The notes below the pieces were generated by a model, which was not told where the DNA came from, did no database searches, and saw nothing but the letters and a program-made list of their open reading frames with translations. 64,000 bases of DNA from a virus, in UHGV virus genome UHGV-0036853; one strand, given 5' to 3'. The position numbers were made by a program, and so were the translations under genes. Below are positions 8,843-64,000 of this stretch, in pieces (positions within the stretch are counted from its first letter, which is position 1; every line of letters starts with the position of its first letter).

Positions 8843-10074
8843 CCAAATATTTTTTGAACAACTTCACGAGCCGCTTGTGCAGAAGCTGAAGGGAGTTTGT
8901 TAATGAAAGAACGCTCAATACCTGTCACGAAGTCGCCTCGCATCATTCCAATCTTGGCCGACAACAAAAGCTCACGAGGCCCAATCGGTTGGCTGATGTT
9001 GTGTTCTTCGTAACCATCGCGAACGATACCGGCAAACTTAACCATCTTTTCAGCGTATTCATCCACGATGCCGGCATTTATCAACATGTTGATCTCTGCC
9101 TCTTTGCTCATGTATTTCACATTTGAAACGATGCCAAAACGCGAAAAGTTCGCTGCGTTCTGGATGTTTGTCCCCTGGTACAAGCCAGTTTCATCACCAG
9201 AACCGTTTGTGTTGCCAGTGCCAATGAAAGCAAACCGTTCATGCGGAGTAATGCGACGCCATTCTGGTGTTGCCTCTTTGATGACCAACGCCTCACCTTC
9301 CAGCACAGGCTGATACACGCCAAGAATTTGTGGAAACGCAAAGTCGTATTCATCCGCGAGGTAAACCCAGCCATGCTTCATTGCGAGCGCAAGCAAGCCT
9401 GGCTCGAAATACGTAGAGCCATCACGCGCCAGAATTTGACCCGTAACATGAGCCTCTTCCATTGATGCTGTATGTTGGGCACGGATCAACGGACGATTGA
9501 GCAAAGCACATAGCTGTGTAGGCAATGACGATTTGCCTGTTCCTGCATGACCCCACAAATAGCCAGGTATGCCAAGTTCAAGCATCATGAAAATATCTTT
9601 GATCAGTTCGAAGTCGCCATATACGTAGCCTTTCTTCACTTCGGGAACGAACTCTGGAAACGGCGTATTGACGTTGACGCTAACCATGAGCGGCGTCCCA
9701 CGTTTTGTTCCGAGTTCTTCCACCGTTACGTCTAGCAGTTCGTGAGCTGCGACCAGATCTGTCTTGTACTCAACTGTGCCTATGTAGCCTGGGCTACTGG
9801 TCACGCCAGAAGATTTGGCCATTTCGCTTTTTTGCTCGGCACGTTTAGCTTGAATTGCATCCAGTGCCTTTTTCGATAGCGTTGGTTCATCTGGAAACTG
9901 CGTTGTGTACATTTTCAGTACGGTGTCAGGATCGGCATCTTTTACCGACTCAGGAATGCCTTCGCAATTACCATAGGCTACATGGGACTTAAAATAGTGA
10001 AATGATTTTCCGCACCACTTGCAAACAAGGTAATCAGAAGGATTTTTTTCATTTTGCAGTGCAGTAGTAGTCAT
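8839..10074 (-). CDS. MoxR/CobS-like AAA+ ATPase with N-terminal zinc finger
   Basis: Walker A GHAGTGKSSL, Walker B VYLADEYD, CKWCGKSFHYF N-terminus. Confidence 0.75.
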   Translation of the reverse strand: MTTTALQNEKNPSDYLVCKWCGKSFHYFKSHVAYGNCEGIPESVKDADPDTVLKMYTTQFPDEPTLSKKALDAIQAKRAEQKSEMAKSSGVTSSPGYIGTVEYKTDLVAAHELLDVTVEELGTKRGTPLMVSVNVNTPFPEFVPEVKKGYVYGDFELIKDIFMMLELGIPGYLWGHAGTGKSSLPTQLCALLNRPLIRAQHTASMEEAHVTGQILARDGSTYFEPGLLALAMKHGWVYLADEYDFAFPQILGVYQPVLEGEALVIKEATPEWRRITPHERFAFIGTGNTNGSGDETGLYQGTNIQNAANFSRFGIVSNVKYMSKEAEINMLINAGIVDEYAEKMVKFAGIVRDGYEEHNISQPIGPRELLLSAKIGMMRGDFVTGIERSFINKLPSASAQAAREVVQKIFG

Positions 10075-10169
10075 GCGTTTTTCCTTTGTTCTCTAATGAG
10101 CGTTCAACTTCTTATATAAATATATCATTAACTATCATAAGTAGTTACTTATCATTAAGGCTGTTTTAA

Positions 10170-12278
10170 TCACTTCAAAATGATACGAGATAGTTCAGTA
10201 ACTACAGATGAACCAAGACTATCAACGCTCGTTACCAGGGCATGATTTGCGTAAAATCTCTCCGGTGCGTCAGTCATTATGCCAATTGCCATCAAATCAA
10301 TGTCAGTCTGCGTTTCAATTTGCTTCGCAACCGAACGCAAATGAGCGTCAAAACCTCTCCCAACAGCCCACGGCGCGCCATCACTCAGAATAAGCATGAT
10401 CTTCCTGTCCTCCATGCGACCGGAAAATAACGATGCAAGGCTGGCTATGCTTTCACCATCCACGTTATTAAGAAGTGGGAATGTGTAGCCTACGCACCCC
10501 ATACGTGAGCGAACTTCGCGAGAATTTACCTTTTCATTCCAATTTTTGATGATAGGTAGCATTAAAGATTCAAAGCGAGAGAACTCATACTTGACAGCCT
10601 TAAGTTCTCCTGCCGCCATATGACTACCAAATGTAGTGAAGCCGGTGATAATGTTGGGAACATTTATTCGATCAAGGGCATCGGCGATGGTATATGCACT
10701 TGCAAGAGCCAATTGTATCGTTATACCACTCATTGAACCTGATAAATCAATCACTTGTTGAACACAGGCGTTAACGGCTTTAGATTCTTCTTTTTTACGA
10801 AACACGCGATCATCATTCATTGCTAATCTGTAGATACTAGAACCATGAATGCGCCCCCGACGCTGGCCCGGTATAAACTGAACTCTGTTTCTGCTTGCTA
10901 TTGCACGTTCCAGGTCTTTTGCTAGCGTCGACGAAACACCTGACGAAAGATGCTTTTCAATATATTTGTCGAAGAGCTGGTTGCCTTCAGGAACGATGCG
11001 ATAGCGGCTGATTGGATATCCTCCTAAATCAATATCGGAGAATGTTTTAATAAGCCGTTTGATATGGGCTTCTGCCTGATCAATCGAGCCGATGAAGTCG
11101 TATGAGCGATTGTATGGCCTGTATTCGCTTTTCGAGCTTTCTGTTAACTCGCTTTTAATCGTTTCGGATAGAGCATCTTCTGTCATGCCTCCGACTTCAT
11201 CTTCTATGCTATCCAGCTCCTCTAAAGCCTCTTCCAGACTCATTTTTGACGGAGTTGGAATATCTGAAGAGCCGTCTTCTGTCGTTTTTCTTTTTTCGTG
11301 GTCAGCGGTTAATGATTCTGACGCCGCGTTATCAGAAGCATCAGAATCTGATACCTCTTTATCATTTTCTGTATCATCGAATATTGTTTCTGATGATTCA
11401 GAATTATCTGAATCATCACTGTCGTTATTATCATGTTTGTGCTTACTATGTGATTCTGAGTTGATAGATTTGTGATTATCTAACGCTGAGGGTGTCTCAT
11501 GATCTTCGTTGTCTTCATTGTTTTCTCCAGAGGCATCCGTCTGGTCAGCGTCTGAAGGATCGGAAGTTTTTCCCGGAGCTGACTCCTTACCTTTGCTTTC
11601 ACTTTCAGTGTCTTTGAGGATCTTAGCTATGGTCGCAGCCACCTTTACACAATCCTCGGTGCAAGACATGTTACGCACGGCCACATCGATACCATGTTCT
11701 TTTAATAATGAAATTGGTTTCTCAATGACAGGCCAATATTCATCCATGAAATCTACGAACGGTGCTTGGCCATCCCAGGCTCTTACAACCGGACAGAGAA
11801 AGAAGTTTAGAAAAAGCGCGCGCTGATCTTTGCCACAATAAGCAATAGCCTCTGAAGCCTTTGGTTTAAAGACTTTTTCGATAATAAGGCGCTGAGTTGC
11901 CATCAGATTACGTCTTGTTCCGTTAAAGACCTGACCCATTTTTCGCTCGATGAACACGTCTTCTAAGGCATTCCATAGCGACCAGGAAGGAACGCGTCCT
12001 TTTCCTCTCATTTTGTTGGACACACGAATATCGGTAAACAAAATGTGAGCAACCTCATGATCGAGAAATCCGCGCACAGCATTCATCAATGCCGGTGTTG
12101 CGTTATCCGGGATTGATGGGATGTTTACGAGAATTGGCTCTCCATCATCGTTATAGCGTACATAAGCGTCGTCCCCTCGTTCTGCAACAGGGATGTTTTT
12201 ACCTGAAAGGAGAGCGACTACTCGTTTTACACTGTCACGGAAGTCCTGAACCTCTTTGATGGAACGTTTTTTAGACAT
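10170..12278 (-). CDS. CobT-like von Willebrand factor A (vWA) domain protein
   Basis: MIDAS motif DLSGSMSG; long acidic Ser/Asp-rich low-complexity insert (about 11200-11600). Confidence 0.7.
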   Translation of the reverse strand: MSKKRSIKEVQDFRDSVKRVVALLSGKNIPVAERGDDAYVRYNDDGEPILVNIPSIPDNATPALMNAVRGFLDHEVAHILFTDIRVSNKMRGKGRVPSWSLWNALEDVFIERKMGQVFNGTRRNLMATQRLIIEKVFKPKASEAIAYCGKDQRALFLNFFLCPVVRAWDGQAPFVDFMDEYWPVIEKPISLLKEHGIDVAVRNMSCTEDCVKVAATIAKILKDTESESKGKESAPGKTSDPSDADQTDASGENNEDNEDHETPSALDNHKSINSESHSKHKHDNNDSDDSDNSESSETIFDDTENDKEVSDSDASDNAASESLTADHEKRKTTEDGSSDIPTPSKMSLEEALEELDSIEDEVGGMTEDALSETIKSELTESSKSEYRPYNRSYDFIGSIDQAEAHIKRLIKTFSDIDLGGYPISRYRIVPEGNQLFDKYIEKHLSSGVSSTLAKDLERAIASRNRVQFIPGQRRGRIHGSSIYRLAMNDDRVFRKKEESKAVNACVQQVIDLSGSMSGITIQLALASAYTIADALDRINVPNIITGFTTFGSHMAAGELKAVKYEFSRFESLMLPIIKNWNEKVNSREVRSRMGCVGYTFPLLNNVDGESIASLASLFSGRMEDRKIMLILSDGAPWAVGRGFDAHLRSVAKQIETQTDIDLMAIGIMTDAPERFYANHALVTSVDSLGSSVVTELSRIILK

Positions 12279-12295
12279 GTCTAATCCTTTGTTAT

Positions 12296-12330
12296 GAAAA
12301 CAAATTGTTTACTAGTGTGTTTAATGTAGC
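12296..12330 (-). promoter_or_regulatory. conserved AAACAAnTTGTTT-type motif upstream of vWA gene
   Basis: motif family 2. Confidence 0.5.
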
Positions 12331-12376
12331 ACTGCGCGAACAGGGAACTAAGCCATTCGCGCAGGGAGAAGAGGGG

Positions 12377-14956: not shown

Positions 14957-15865
14957 ATGATTGGTAAGTTGTCTGATTCTTTGATTGAAAATAAATACAA
15001 CGAATTTAGAGAAGAAATATCTTTACTTTTTGACTATTTAAATCAGATAAATGATACAACAAAGAAAAATATAAAACGTCTTCTAAAAGAAGTGGAGTAT
15101 GCACAGAATCCAGATACTATTATTAATATTAATGAAACTATTAAGATTAAGTGTGGCACAACGTTAGCTCGCCATTTATGTTCAAACCCATATACAGGTT
15201 CAACATTAGAGATAGGTAACAGCGCCATTGATTTAGAAGAAAAGATAAGATTGTGTAATGTTTTGAAGAATAAACAATATCAGTGGGTTATTACTGAAGC
15301 CTATGAGTTACTGGAAGACTATATTGAGGCAATATATGTCTATACTGTATGTGTTCGAAATGATTTCTGGTCCTCAAGTAATTTTGGTAAGGTTGAAGAT
15401 GATGACATTGGGAAAGGGGAAGTTTATTACAAATTATTAAAAGCAAAAAGTAACCCATCGAAAAAAATAATTAAAATTTTCAGAAATAAAATACCTGGCT
15501 TCAAAGAGATAGAAATAAACAACAAGATTGGTAAAAACTATCGCTTTAACATCAAGCTAATTGAACTACTAAGACATACAATAGTACACAATAGTGGACG
15601 ATTCAATGATACAGAAAAATTTATAAATAAGGTTTTAGATGAATCTGAAATAAACGGTAAGAAAAGAGTTATTGGAGAAAGAGCTGTTAGAAGTTACATT
15701 GCTAAAGTGCAAGAAGATGATATTGTAATGCTCTTAGAAAGACCATCTGAAATTTTTGGTTCTTTTGGTGGTTATTTTAACAGAGCAAAATTTTTACTAA
15801 GTGATATTTTAGAATACTCACTAATCATTAAAGAAGAACTAAAATCATATCTAGGCAATCATTAA
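14957..15865 (+). CDS. AT-rich accessory protein, possible HEPN-type (Abi-like) protein
   Basis: 302 aa, low GC by eye, Rx4H motif RHTIVH, own terminator; functional call is weak. Confidence 0.4.
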   Translation: MIGKLSDSLIENKYNEFREEISLLFDYLNQINDTTKKNIKRLLKEVEYAQNPDTIININETIKIKCGTTLARHLCSNPYTGSTLEIGNSAIDLEEKIRLCNVLKNKQYQWVITEAYELLEDYIEAIYVYTVCVRNDFWSSSNFGKVEDDDIGKGEVYYKLLKAKSNPSKKIIKIFRNKIPGFKEIEINNKIGKNYRFNIKLIELLRHTIVHNSGRFNDTEKFINKVLDESEINGKKRVIGERAVRSYIAKVQEDDIVMLLERPSEIFGSFGGYFNRAKFLLSDILEYSLIIKEELKSYLGNH

Positions 15866-15869
15866 CAAA

Positions 15870-15896
15870 AAAAGGGGCCGAAGCCCCTTTGAATTT
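15870..15896 (+). terminator. intrinsic terminator
   Basis: ggggccgaagcccc hairpin followed by T-rich tract. Confidence 0.7.
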
Positions 15897-16044
15897 TGCG
15901 CTGAAAAAAGTGTTGCTAGGATGTTAGCAAGCTATGGTTAAGAACGTCTGCCGTAATTGTCTATCACAGCGTTGAGCGGTCTGGTTTATGTTAGCGGAGT
16001 CTTAATCTGGGTGATTAAAAGGCCAAACCGCTCAACGCTGTGTC

Positions 16045-59718: not shown

Positions 59719-60030
59719 TCAGGCTATTGCCATCACTGATGCTCTCTGAATTTCTTGCTGGGCCACGCGGTTAACTTCCATCAAAGCCAGTTCGAGCTGA
59801 TGTTCCGGCCACATTCTTTGAAATGCCACCCAGCCTTTTCCACGCTGGCGACGAACATTCATTACATAACGAGTAAAGGTGTTTTTATCGAAAGACACCG
59901 CTGTTTCACGGAACAGACGAATAGAGGTTCCATTGGCAACGATGTCCAGCAAAGTTAATTGAGCAACCAGCGCAGGCTTCTCTTTTCTCTTCTGGTCTTT
60001 GTCCAGACCAAGAACCAATGATTTTTTCAT
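59719..60030 (-). CDS. small basic hypothetical protein
   Basis: start at ATG 60030 behind GGAG. Confidence 0.45.
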   Translation of the reverse strand: MKKSLVLGLDKDQKRKEKPALVAQLTLLDIVANGTSIRLFRETAVSFDKNTFTRYVMNVRRQRGKGWVAFQRMWPEHQLELALMEVNRVAQQEIQRASVMAIA

Positions 60031-60040
60031 CACAACTCCG

Positions 60041-60080
60041 TAAACAACTTGTTTTCTCAATGGCGTAAATAATACCAGTG
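60041..60080 (-). promoter_or_regulatory. motif family 2 copy
   Basis: taaacaacttgttttctcaatggcgtaaataata. Confidence 0.5.
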
Positions 60081-60184
60081 AGAAAACGGCTACAAAGCAT
60101 ATTGATCAGGTACATGAGCGATATGCAGGTTCTTCCCTGCGGCTACAGATGAAGTTAAGCCAGCATTGCTGGCTTTGGTTGGGT

Positions 60185-60514
60185 TTACTCGAATACTTCA
60201 AGAAACTCCTGAACATCCCAATGCTGGACAAGGTGAAGATAGACCTTAGAAATCACGTCATTCTCGCTATCGCATGTGAAGTAGTACTTCTGGCTGCGGT
60301 TGTATGTGTCCACACAAAATTCGCTCATATCCATAAAGTCAGCATCTTCACCCATGTCGCAAATCATCAAAGCAGGTGCATCATCACGAGTCATCAGCTC
60401 AAGCACCCACCGCGAATTGATCAGAGTGGAAGACCAACCTTCTAACTCATAAAACTGATCAAACTCTTTTTGAGTCAATTTCTTGATTTGGTTGATGTCG
60501 ATATGTGCAAACAT
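60185..60514 (-). CDS. small acidic protein
   Basis: start at ATG 60514 behind AAGGA; D/E-rich. Confidence 0.45.
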   Translation of the reverse strand: MFAHIDINQIKKLTQKEFDQFYELEGWSSTLINSRWVLELMTRDDAPALMICDMGEDADFMDMSEFCVDTYNRSQKYYFTCDSENDVISKVYLHLVQHWDVQEFLEVFE

Positions 60515-60526
60515 AAAGCAATCCTT

Positions 60527-60580
60527 AAACAACATGTTTTCTTATTGGTGTTATTATCGCAATAACACACAGGCGAAAAA
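60527..60580 (-). promoter_or_regulatory. motif family 2 copy
   Basis: aaacaacatgttttcttattggtgttattatcg. Confidence 0.5.
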
Positions 60581-60699
60581 GGATTTTATTCCGGTGAATG
60601 TGGTTTTGGCAGTGAGTTTTCAGGTTCAGTACCGAGTACAATTTTTACATTATTCTGATTTAGTGGCCGAAGATGGCTGGTGGGCAGAATAATCCTCTC

Positions 60700-62000
60700 C
60701 CCGAAAACCTACTGAAATCGATTGTGACCCGCTGGCTGTCTGGCACAATTACGCTGTAGCTGGGCATTCAGAGGGAATCCAGCGGTAAGTAAGTCCGCCT
60801 GCACGTGAGCGTCTCTCTCCTTCCCGCACATTACAGGTGGGCAGCCGCAACTCTCCCTCACGCTATACCGGTACGCCACCGTTCCTGAACCGGCATCGAA
60901 CCTTTTCCCGAAATCCACACAGGCAACTCGACCGTTTCCCTGAAAACCTCCAGCCGTTCCCCGAAGGCAACCCAGCCGTTTCTGTAGCGGGATGCAGCCT
61001 TTTCCCTGTATGGACCGAAGGCTGACCGTAGGGGTGTTACGGGGGATAAAATCAGGAGTTGAATAAATACGAAAAAGGAGGCGACACCCCTCCTTCCCTC
61101 CCCACTTATACATACCTGGCTTCTTCGCTATACATGTTGTGTTTTATTCGTGTTTTATCTGTCTCAACCTCTCTATAGGCGTTAATGCTCACTCCTTCCA
61201 GAGCGTTCTATACGGCGACTATTCCTGTTGGTGAATTGGGTGTGTTGTTCTCTCTGTCGGTGTAAATGGTTTCGTTCGTTTTGCGGTGGTTCTTCTGTGG
61301 GGGTGTTCTCGTCGTTTTGGTGATTGTTCTTCTCCGTGTATGGAGTAATGGCAGGTGGGCGATTCCTTTCGTTATTGTGTTTGAGTTGTTTGTCTGGAGT
61401 GCGTGAAGGGCTTTTGTAGTTATTCGTGTATTGGGTAATGGCGTTTCCCGTGATTGTTATGTTTCGTGTCTTTTGGGATTGAGAGAATCCTTGCGGTTAC
61501 AGGCTTCGTTGGGTTTTCAGTGATTCTGGTGTTCTTCGCTGTTTGGGGAATGGCGTGTCGTGGGTATCGCGCGTGTGAATGTTTTCGGATTGCCTGTGAA
61601 AGTTAGGTTGGTTGTCCGGTAGCCTGGGAAGAAGAGGTGGGTCTTTTCGGTGGCCTGCCATAAAGAGGTTGGTTGTTTTTGGGAATGGCATGTGTGTTAT
61701 TTAGTTGTTTTGTTATGCCTGAAAATAAGTTGTTTATATGGTTGTGTAACGCAACGGGAGCGATTTTGAGCGTGTGTTTTTGTTGGTAGTGTGTTGAGTT
61801 GTCTGTGGTGAAAATTGGACGCTGTGGAGCTGTCTGCTGCGTAGGATTACGGGTATAAGAAGTGATGTGTGAAAACGTCAATTTTTTAGACCAAATCGGG
61901 TGAAAGCGTTGACGTTTCGTTGATCTGTTATTCAGTTGTTTTCTTGTTTGTATAAACAACTATAACCTATTGATATTTAAGGATGTGATTGCAGGCATGG
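60700..62000. other. ~1.3-kb gene-poor, strongly G+T-skewed (plus strand) region with spaced short repeats
   Basis: TTCCCnGAAA-like repeats at 60.70-61.0 kb; four spaced GGGnAATGGC-like repeats at about 61336, 61427, 61540 and 61681. Confidence 0.5.
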
Positions 62001-62087
62001 AAGGGGAGTAGTGGCGATCAACGGATTCTTATAGAAAAGAATCAAATTGTGACCGCCATTATCAACGGTTTGAATATGTTTTCAGAT

Positions 62088-62396
62088 TTACCAGTTCCAG
62101 CACTCTAGCCCTTCAACGACTGGTGCACCACAATCAAAATGTACAGAGTCAAAGCCTACATCAAGTACCTTCTGAATGTTAGCAATCGCGCCTTCGGATA
62201 TACCATATCGACGCAAGTTGTCTTTCCAGACATCATCCTGTAACCCGGCGTGGACAATACAACCGCCGTCAATTTGCGAAACCCAATCCAGCTCATTGCT
62301 TGCGATCATGAACCGGCGAGCATCTTCCTCTGATGTATGAGATGAACTGATCAATGCCACCTGGTAGGCTTGGGTAATGTTCAACATTTCAACCAC
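62088..62396 (-). CDS. hypothetical protein (last gene before chromosome junction)
   Basis: ORF with two upstream motif copies. Confidence 0.45.
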   Translation of the reverse strand: MVEMLNITQAYQVALISSSHTSEEDARRFMIASNELDWVSQIDGGCIVHAGLQDDVWKDNLRRYGISEGAIANIQKVLDVGFDSVHFDCGAPVVEGLECWNW

Positions 62397-62400
62397 TCCG

Positions 62401-62470
62401 AAACAATTTGTTTTCTTATATGGCTTATTATCTCAATTAACAAAAGTCAGAAAACAAATTGTTTTAGGCA
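62401..62470 (-). promoter_or_regulatory. two motif family 2 copies
   Basis: aaacaatttgttttcttatatggcttattatc and agaaaacaaattgtttta. Confidence 0.5.
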
Positions 62471-62547
62471 TATGTAAATCAGAAGGGATTGCGTCTATAT
62501 GAAAATGCCCAGCGTGTTGCCGGGCATTGCGAACAGAGGTTGTTTAG

Positions 62548-64000
62548 TTACTTAACCTGGTGGCCTGGTTTAGCGCCAGCATCCGGGCTTAACAGGAAGA
62601 TATCTTTCCCGCCAGGGCCAGCAGCCATCACCATGCCTTCGGAGATACCGAAGCGCATTTTACGCGGAGCCAGGTTAGCCACCATAATGGTGTGACGACC
62701 AATCAGTGCCTGTGGGTCTGGATAAGCAGAACGGATGCCTGAGAAGACATTGCGTTTTTCACCACCGAGATCCAGTGTCAGACGCAACAGTTTGTCAGAA
62801 CCTTCAACAAACTCCGCGTTTTCAATCAGCGCCACACGCAGGTCAACTTTGGCGAAGTCGTCAAAGGTGATGGTTTCCTGAATCGGGTCGTCAGCCAGTG
62901 GGCCAGTTACCGGTGCGGCTGTGGCTTTCACTTCTTCTTTGGATGCTTCCACCAGTGCTTCCACCTGTTTCATATCGATACGGTTATACAGTGCTTTGAA
63001 CGGATTCACTTTATGGCTCAACAGCGGTTGCTGAATACCATCCCAGGTCAGTTCTGTATTCAGGAATGCTTCTGCACGTTCAGTCAGTTTCGGCAGTACC
63101 GGTTTCAGGTAAGTCATCAGCACGCGGAACAGGTTAATGCCCATAGAGCAAATCGCCTGCAGATCTGCATCGCGACCTTCCTGCTTCGCCACCACCCACG
63201 GAGCCTGTTCATCGACATAGCGGTTAGCCAGGTCAGCCAATGCCATGATTTCACGGATAGCTTTACCAAATTCGCGGCTTTCCCATGCTTCGCCAATCAC
63301 TTCAGCGGCATCAGTAAAGGTTTTGTACAGTTGCGGGTCAGCCAGTTCGCTTGCCAGCACGCCGTCAAAACGCTTGTTGATAAAGCCCGCATTACGGGAG
63401 GCCAGGTTAACCACTTTGTTCACGATATCGGCATTCACACGCTGAACGAAATCCTCCAGGTTGAGATCGATATCATCAATGCGCGAAGACAGTTTGGCGG
63501 TGTAGTAGTAACGCAGGCTGTCAGCGTCAAAATGATTCAGCCAGGTGCTGGCTTTAATAAAGGTGCCGCGAGACTTGGACATCTTCGCGCCGTTCACCGT
63601 CACATAGCCGTGAACAAACAGGTTGGTCGGCTTGCGGAAGTTGCTGCCTTCCAGCATGGCAGGCCAGAACAGGCTGTGGAAGTAAACAATATCTTTACCG
63701 ATGAAGTGGTACAGCTCGGCGGTGGAGTCTTTCTTCCAGTATTCATCGAAGCTGGTGGTATCGCCGCGCTTGTCGCACAGATTCTTGAAGGAACCCATGT
63801 AGCCAATCGGTGCGTCCAGCCAGACGTAGAAATATTTACCCGGCGCGTTCGGAATTTCAAAACCGAAGTACGGCGCATCGCGGGAGATATCCCACTGTTG
63901 CAGGCCAGATTCAAACCACTCCTGCATTTTATTTGCCACTTGCTCCTGCAACGCGCCGCTGCGGGTCCATGCCTGCAACATTTCGCTGAAAGAAGGCAGA
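62548..64000 (-). CDS. metG: methionine--tRNA ligase, C-terminal two-thirds (partial, continues past window end)
   Basis: KMSKS motif, anticodon-binding and C-terminal tRNA-binding regions read as E. coli MetRS. Confidence 0.9.

Follow-up and report, generated by a model that had tools for sequence, protein, structure and literature searches.

A plasmid-borne metG with a 3' hairpin beside a cargo-backbone joint in an SSU5-like phage-plasmid

We found that metG, which encodes methionyl-tRNA synthetase (MetRS) and lies at the right-hand end of the DNA analyzed here (64,000 nucleotides, referred to as the window), is plasmid-borne. Our data indicate that the window is, judging by its collinearity with circular relatives, part of an SSU5/pHCM2/pLF82-type phage-plasmid in which positions 62396-62550 form an internal intergenic region. 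By the same comparisons metG is inside the element, and there is no chromosome in the window. The source element would be a temperate siphovirus that persists as a circular plasmid of ~109 kb. Overall, we regard it as very likely that the region represents the interior of a phage-plasmid, with a cargo metG and its terminator hairpin, a joint, and a backbone promoter/operator module. Feature coordinates are collected in Table 1.

Table 1. Features of the metG 3' flank and the adjoining backbone, in window coordinates
Feature	Position	Strand	Remarks
DUF5983-family gene, 99 aa	62088..62387	-	ATG at 62387-62385; Shine-Dalgarno GGAG at 62396-62399
Proximal AAACAATTTGTTT palindrome	62401..62413	.	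Putative operator just downstream of the predicted transcription start
-10-like hexamer GATAAT, with TGA before it (extended -10-like)	62427..62432	-	Predicted DUF5983 promoter
Distal AAACAAATTGTTT palindrome	62452..62464	.	Putative operator; upstream of or overlapping the -35 of the predicted DUF5983 promoter
Boundary zone, phage-plasmid backbone (left) and metG-apbC cargo (right)	62465..62483	.	Homology to metG-free relatives stops
Hairpin AAUGCCCGGC-AACAC-GCUGGGCAUU, then UUCAUAUA	62504..62528	-	Probable intrinsic terminator of the metG cassette
Spacer, metG stop to hairpin	62529..62547	-	Cargo-specific; varies among phage-plasmids (alignment)
metG (methionyl-tRNA synthetase), 3' part	62548..64000	-	1,453 nt (483 codons and the TAA stop); gene continues past the end of the window

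metG and its phage-plasmid context

The whole 64-kb window is collinear with SSU5/pHCM2/pLF82-type circular phage-plasmids (~107-113 kb) at 96-98% identity. Coverage was 92-100% at this identity against many such plasmids and phage Cyrano, and positions 1-25000, 25001-50000, and 60000-64000 all led to the same records, e.g., pMRY16-002_2 (108,986 bp), again at 96-98%. The top match in the phage collection was Escherichia phage Cyrano (= pLF82; OV696614), an SSU5-like phage-plasmid of E. coli LF82 for which extrachromosomal circular maintenance and virion production have been reported (PMC9928086). Phage structural and replication genes were taken from the annotation of relatives rather than re-derived from window open reading frames; under positions 1-50000 this annotation lists dnaE, a DnaB-like helicase, ligase, and terminase large subunit, together with portal, tape measure, and tail proteins. 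The local gene order in pMRY16-002_2, Cyrano, and pMTY12368 is DUF5983 or DUF1380, metG (minus strand), apbC (plus strand), and S24 peptidase (minus strand), with further phage-plasmid genes beyond the S24 peptidase gene, and MetRS is annotated as CYRAN_100 in Cyrano. Because the window ends within metG, our account of apbC and of the right-hand boundary rests on close relatives and not on the molecule itself.

The initial annotation had placed the metG stop, an inverted repeat, and the last copies of motif family 2 in this region, and all were found where it put them. The frame is open on the minus strand from the TAA stop at 62548-62550 to the window end, and the N-terminal 194 MetRS codons are outside the window. 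Pfam assigned three domains to the 483 visible codons: the catalytic domain of class I Met-tRNA synthetases (tRNA-synt_1g), the anticodon domain of MetRS (Anticodon_3), and a tRNA-binding domain at the C-terminus (tRNA_bind). The frame ends in GHQVK and the stop, as it does in K-12. Identity to K-12 is 98.7% (protein) and ~94% (DNA) for the plasmid MetRS (dN/dS 0.024) and 94.5% (protein) and ~82% (DNA) for the plasmid ApbC (dN/dS about 0.02). Both metG and apbC are thus under strong purifying selection (dN/dS about 0.02). With catalytic, anticodon-binding, and C-terminal tRNA-binding domains, an intact visible frame, and purifying selection, the gene has the features of a MetRS gene, and the plasmid-borne copy would be functional.

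We asked where this metG and its flank occur with a megablast of positions 61500-64000 against 5,426 complete E. coli genomes. The whole query was matched in 213 genomes at 94-97% identity, and the full-length matches were, among the matches listed, on plasmids of ~109-113 kb. Every E. coli chromosome, in contrast, matched only query positions 1049-2501 (62548 inward) at ~93.5% identity. The same pattern was obtained in PLSDB and the phage collection. A sensitive blastn search of the 5,426 genomes placed the 152-bp interval 62396-62547 at 300 sites, all of them plasmid and none chromosomal, and the tail 62472-62547 was found at 0 of 5,424 chromosomal places. This metG is present on about 200 plasmids and is 96-98% identical to plasmid alleles and ~93.5% identical to all E. 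coli chromosomal metG. Since no record is identical and the closest metG match is 97.9%, the window is another variant of the metG-carrying SSU5-like phage-plasmids.

These data bear directly on the initial annotation, which had proposed an element-chromosome junction within ~80 bp of the metG stop, with the inverted repeat as a possible part of the attachment site. Such an arrangement would correspond to a genomic island or prophage integrated beside chromosomal metG, the interval being an att core and the inverted repeat a recombinase site. Homology to E. coli chromosomes does stop abruptly at the metG stop, which on its own resembles an insertion point and is the only feature shared with integrase-mediated islands at gene or tRNA 3' ends. 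Against it, the metG allele is of the plasmid type (96-98%) rather than the chromosomal type, the window is collinear with circular plasmids and a phage genome that hold metG internally, and the interval is never chromosomal in the 5,426 genomes. The two tests that the initial annotation had named were also carried out. In the comparison with the metG 3' flank of a strain lacking the element, K-12, the flank was unrelated from the first base past the stop. In the search for a duplicated core, positions 62466-62550 had no second copy in the window beyond chance matches of at most 11 nt. Furthermore, no repeats, direct or inverted, bracket the cassette in L001 except the promoter modules. An integration junction would have a chromosomal side, a duplicated core, and a flank that occurs on chromosomes; none of the three was found here, in contrast to integrase-mediated islands. 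Given the unrelated K-12 flank, the plasmid-only interval, and the lack of a repeated core, we rejected the att-site reading, which we consider highly improbable, and with it the junction: the window is collinear with phage-plasmids throughout, and neither a duplicated core in the window nor a chromosomal flank accompanies the inverted repeat.

The hairpin 3' of metG

The other possibility raised for the inverted repeat (atgcccagcgtgttgccgggcat, 62505-62527), that it is the metG terminator, gained support. In metG-sense RNA it forms a 10-bp stem (62519-62528 paired with 62504-62513) with a 5-nt loop, and the hairpin begins 20 nt past the metG stop. The metG-sense fold (RNA 62550-62490) has a free energy of -20.1 kcal/mol and a z-score of -4.28, and 0 of 200 shuffles were equally stable. 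The plus-strand fold reaches a z-score of only -1.5 because one pair turns into an A-C mismatch. The stem-loop is therefore stable, GC-rich, formed in the sense RNA, and located just past the stop, as in a rho-independent terminator.

Furthermore, the stem is conserved. All ten pairs are kept in 11 of 11 aligned phage-plasmid copies, and the sole variable pair, pair 8, is G-U in seven copies, A-U in two, and G-C in two. The spacer differs among the same 11 copies (CUCUGUUCG, CUCUCUUCG, CAUUCUUCA, and CAUUUUUCA). Since only one stem pair varies, the covariation statistic carries no information (313 of 500 shuffles score at least as high), and we treat conservation of the hairpin across the 11 copies as supporting evidence, not proof, of a terminator. 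As a separate observation, the three states of pair 8 (G-U, A-U, and G-C) were all read as pairing only in metG-sense RNA.

The 3' tail after the stem is UUUUCAUAU, in which CAUAU comes after four U residues, two of which belong to the base of the stem. Because the U-tract is interrupted in this way, the hairpin was not called by the consensus terminator scan. The interrupted U-tract and the missing call together mean that termination could be partial. We conclude that the hairpin is probably the intrinsic terminator of the cassette, possibly a leaky one. In this arrangement the 10-bp GC-rich hairpin and UUUUCAUAU would most likely end metG transcription and insulate the cargo from the backbone.

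A useful comparison is with the native metG terminator of K-12. The K-12 flank has its own terminator, AAGGCGCUG...CAGCGCCUUUUCUUU, whose hairpin reads AAGGCGCUG-CAUCGA-CAGCGCCUU-UUCUUU. In both cases a GC-rich hairpin lies 12-22 nt past the same stop and is followed by a U-run, and the stabilities are comparable (-16.2 kcal/mol in K-12 and -20.1 kcal/mol here, with z = -4.3 for both). The sequences are unrelated, however, and the U-tract is poorer here (UUUUCAUAU versus UUUUCUUU in K-12).

An alternative is that the hairpin does not terminate transcription and is either left over from the donor chromosome, for instance as a REP-like element or stabilizing 3' stem-loop, or a palindrome bound by protein at the DNA level. 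The weak U-tract and the absence of a terminator call would fit this, as would the near-invariant stem, which is also expected of a DNA-binding site. We nonetheless consider it unlikely. The commonest state of pair 8, G-U, pairs only in metG-sense RNA and becomes an A-C mismatch on the opposite strand and in a DNA cruciform, and the fold z-score is accordingly strand-specific. The hairpin also lies 20 nt past the stop and ends in UUUU, resembling the native K-12 metG terminator that it replaces. No other copy of the hairpin occurs in the window or in GTDB representative genomes, which argues against a dispersed REP-type repeat. A terminator thus remains our preferred reading of the hairpin.

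We also considered whether the hairpin could be part of a plus-strand gene and rejected this candidate, as only spurious short open reading frames converge there. The spacer between the metG stop and the hairpin showed no similarity to the K-12 metG 3' flank or to any of the 80 Enterobacterales chromosomal metG loci listed. Within 60500-62700, an Rfam search by E-value returned only a chance miRNA match (E = 0.9) across the palindrome module, and no tandem repeats were found.

The cargo-backbone joint and the promoter/operator module

Part of the earlier junction claim stood. Two kinds of DNA do meet within ~80 bp of the metG stop, at about 62465-62483, but they are phage-plasmid backbone and cargo. 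This mosaic boundary, 64-83 bp from the stop, is seen where homology to metG-free plasmids ends, including pGS04EC-1, pHCM2, and plasmids of Enterobacter, Citrobacter, and Klebsiella. For pGS04EC-1, BLAST puts the end of homology at 62464 and the MAFFT alignment puts it at about 62482; for pHCM2 and the Enterobacter and Citrobacter plasmids it lies at about 62468, and several other plasmids share only 62401-62471. In total, about 400 plasmids match some part of the 498-bp query 62050-62547.

The same position holds different genes in relatives. In pGS04EC-1 and pTB212 the module and the S24 peptidase gene are again present, with a DUF4145 gene between them, and in SSU5, pHCM2, and p1585m1_B the slot region holds a small open reading frame, ydfZ, and other genes. 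The slot, bounded by the module and by the S24 gene or its neighborhood, is therefore occupied by metG-apbC, DUF4145, or the ydfZ region in otherwise collinear relatives, as is typical of cargo. At the other end of the cassette, K-12 homology reaches as far as the apbC stop, and homology to pGS04EC-1 resumes ~30 bp later, at the S24 stop. Between the two stops is a second hairpin, GGUGGUGCA-NNN-UGCACCACC; since it is followed on the minus strand by UUUUUAU, it reads as a predicted terminator of the S24 gene. The cassette spans 3.3 kb and consists of a 64-76-nt tail with the metG hairpin, metG, a 157-bp divergent intergenic region, apbC, and a ~30-nt tail; metG and apbC are divergently transcribed, hairpins are present at both cassette ends, and upstream of metG only 47 nt are conserved with E. 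coli. By comparison with these relatives, the joint near the metG stop is one between backbone and cargo within a phage-plasmid, at a variable cargo slot. The metG-apbC cassette would sit between the S24-peptidase gene and the module, where sister plasmids carry other genes, and the minus-strand order would be metG stop, cargo-specific 64-76-nt tail, joint, and backbone promoter/operator module.

The backbone side of the joint begins with a ~71-bp module. It contains two palindromes 51 bp apart that bracket the GATAAT -10 element; these are exact AAACAANTTGTTT palindromes (62401-62413 and 62452-62464) and the last two copies of motif family 2. In the window, 13 matches to the palindrome with at most one mismatch were found versus 0.65 expected (maximum of 3 in shuffles), and the distal copy is invariant across the 11 phage-plasmid copies. 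When aligned in the sense of their downstream genes, the palindrome copies of the window share one architecture. At other copies, e.g., 57904, 58389, and 60527, the palindrome has a -10-like GATAAT, TAATTA, or TATTAT 12-13 nt upstream of it and a Shine-Dalgarno sequence with a start codon 7-25 nt downstream. A pair of dyad-symmetric sites with a free central base that brackets a promoter has the look of a dimeric-repressor operator pair. By this analogy we infer that the palindromes are a putative operator pair around the predicted DUF5983 promoter, which the sigma-70 scan did not call. The backbone module would then drive the next gene, DUF5983, which is the first backbone gene downstream of it (Pfam PF19419, E = 1.1e-10) and whose protein is WP_000932312.1 in the annotation of pMRY16-002_2 and pIncFIB.

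The module recurs upstream of the S24 gene (86% over 36 nt, L001 12865-12900), and copies are also present in SSU5 and pHCM2. It forms a conserved island whose flanks are unrelated from plasmid to plasmid, with DUF5983 or DUF1380 on the left and metG-apbC, DUF4145, or the ydfZ region on the right.

Origin of the cassette and comparison with known systems

We compared synonymous divergence of the two cargo genes. For metG, dS between the plasmid and K-12 (0.28) equals that between K-12 and Escherichia sp. E1V33, while K-12 and Citrobacter differ by 0.73. For apbC, dS between the plasmid and K-12 is about 1.0-1.7, like that between K-12 and Citrobacter (1.07), values near saturation at which a comparison of depth is rough. 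In a three-point dS estimate, again a rough one, metG and apbC diverged from the E. coli lineage at similar depths within Escherichia, and the branch of the plasmid apbC was too long by a factor of about 2.5. The long branch suggests acceleration rather than a different origin of apbC. Since metG and apbC have a similar split depth, we favour one capture event, from a basal donor of the Escherichia lineage, after which apbC evolved faster; the cassette would have been captured once from an Escherichia-lineage chromosome outside E. coli proper.

The difference between the two genes could also be explained if the break at the stop codon were a gene-conversion boundary, at which the open reading frame of an older and more distant cargo metG had been overwritten by an Escherichia chromosomal metG. 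The far greater divergence of apbC from E. coli (dS 1.0-1.7 versus 0.28) points in this direction, as does the metG-apbC intergenic region, which aligns over its full length to Citrobacter and over only 47 nt to E. coli. The apbC values, however, are close to saturation and allow only a rough comparison, and the three-point estimate gives both genes a similar split depth with a long apbC branch. The divergence of metG from K-12 is also spread fairly evenly over the gene, and long identical tracts are absent. Gene conversion is in our judgment quite improbable, and a single capture remains the favoured origin.

Searches for the donor gave no match. The sequence ATGCCCRGCGTGTTGCCGGGCAT had 0 exact matches in GTDB representative genomes, and in a MetRS-based scan of genome contigs, which covered at least 80 chromosomal loci with incomplete sampling of Escherichia species, the 3' tail was absent from all 80 loci listed. 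Neither the hairpin nor the MetRS-based searches found the donor chromosome or the origin of the 64-76-nt tail. We tentatively suggest, as one possibility that is rather less than probable, that the ~71-bp module (62401-62471) serves as portable homology for cargo swaps, that the cassette was installed or exchanged by recombination between module copies, and that the hairpin tail (64-76 nt) is the last piece of an unsampled basal Escherichia donor chromosome.

Phage-plasmid-borne metG is already known; it is carried in the annotation of Cyrano and has been published. As cited in a 2025 Shigella paper (PMC12452169), Tam et al. 2024 (doi 10.1101/2024.10.27.24316207) described a phage-plasmid-encoded metG in Shigella sonnei. 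The 2025 paper summarizes their findings as linking phage-plasmid metG to antimicrobial survival in epidemic Shigella sonnei, with plasmid metG expression giving rise to a subpopulation predisposed to acquiring cephalosporin resistance. The metG-carrying SSU5-like phage-plasmids thus include pLF82/Cyrano (OV696614), pMRY16-002_2, pECOH89-type plasmids, and the Shigella sonnei phage-plasmid of Tam et al. 2024. The window resembles these plasmids in gene order, in the metG-apbC cassette, and in its 96-98% identity; it differs in one stem pair and one loop base of the hairpin and in a few bases of the module.

The anatomy would be an ordinary moron-type layout in a mosaic temperate phage, i.e., a cargo gene, a hairpin, a joint, and a regulated backbone promoter. 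Like phage morons, the block is missing from sister genomes at the same position, lies between a gene end and the next promoter, and has a putative terminator hairpin at each end together with the proximal part of what would be the cassette's own native promoter region. Unlike typical morons, the cargo here is an essential housekeeping gene pair from the host lineage rather than a lysogenic-conversion gene, and apbC is transcribed against the flanking operons.

The metG cassette leaves current understanding unchallenged, and its significance is a correction of the map: metG is a second, plasmid-borne copy, and to annotate the window as a chromosomal island beside metG would be wrong. Given the link of phage-plasmid metG to antimicrobial survival, the cassette limits, the probable terminator, and the neighboring predicted promoter are useful for constructs, for copy-number assays, and for separating plasmid from chromosomal metG in short-read data. 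The 64-76-nt tail at 62472-62547 is a plasmid-only marker.

A palindrome recurring upstream of minus-strand genes

We found that the palindrome AAACAANTTGTTT is present in 13 copies within the 64-kb window, for which 0.65 copies are expected. Almost every copy immediately precedes the start of a minus-strand gene and is set between a -10 element, which resembles GATAAT or TAATTA and is 12-13 nt upstream of the palindrome, and a Shine-Dalgarno sequence and ATG directly downstream. The palindrome looks like a putative regulon-wide operator of the phage-plasmid.

Positions of the palindrome copies and of the two cargo genes, with divergence of the genes from E. coli
Feature	Location	Positions	dS	dN
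AAACAANTTGTTT palindrome	window	12298, 23974, 26004, 48009, 48034, 57904, 58389, 59139, 60042, 60527, 61723, 62401, 62452
metG	L001, outside window	9051-11084	0.28	0.007
apbC	L001, outside window	11242-12342	1.0-1.7	0.035

The putative promoter/operator module and its neighbors

The putative promoter/operator module of approximately 71 bp (within window 62393-62483) has equivalents in loci L005, L006, L007, L088, L092, and L095 and forms a conserved island between non-homologous genes. Depending on the plasmid, its left neighbor is DUF5983 or DUF1380, while metG-apbC, DUF4145, or a ydfZ region lies to its right. Since the module is conserved while the flanking genes differ between plasmids, it behaves as a mosaic joint.

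Divergence of the metG-apbC cassette

The two cargo genes, carried by the related phage-plasmid locus L001, contrast strongly in their divergence from E. coli, with apbC being the more divergent, and dN/dS is approximately 0.02 for both. The contrast points to accelerated evolution of the plasmid apbC; a separate history for metG is a less likely source. Approximately 135 nt of the metG-apbC intergenic region (L001 11085-11241) can be aligned to Citrobacter chromosomes, at 78%; in E. coli, as in Escherichia sp. E1V33, only the 47 nt adjoining metG align. The plasmid may have retained an older form of the divergent metG-apbC promoter region. Separately, record L009 (CP170191.1), labeled as the Enterobacter hormaechei strain B56 chromosome, carries metG and a partial apbC with 100% identity to their E. 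coli K-12 counterparts; this entry has probably been mislabeled or is an E. coli genome.

Skewed and low-GC stretches

Window 61000-62000 has a strong strand skew (GC skew of +0.32, AT skew of -0.35), and an Rfam search of this stretch gave no match and a search for tandem repeats found none. Within it, 61207-61945 is 72% conserved relative to SSU5 90529-91327, and relatives are annotated across the stretch with short unconserved ORFs only. The GC minimum of the window (0.31, mean of approximately 0.46) falls at 15001-16000, around a plus-strand ORF (14957-15865), and may be a further cargo gene.
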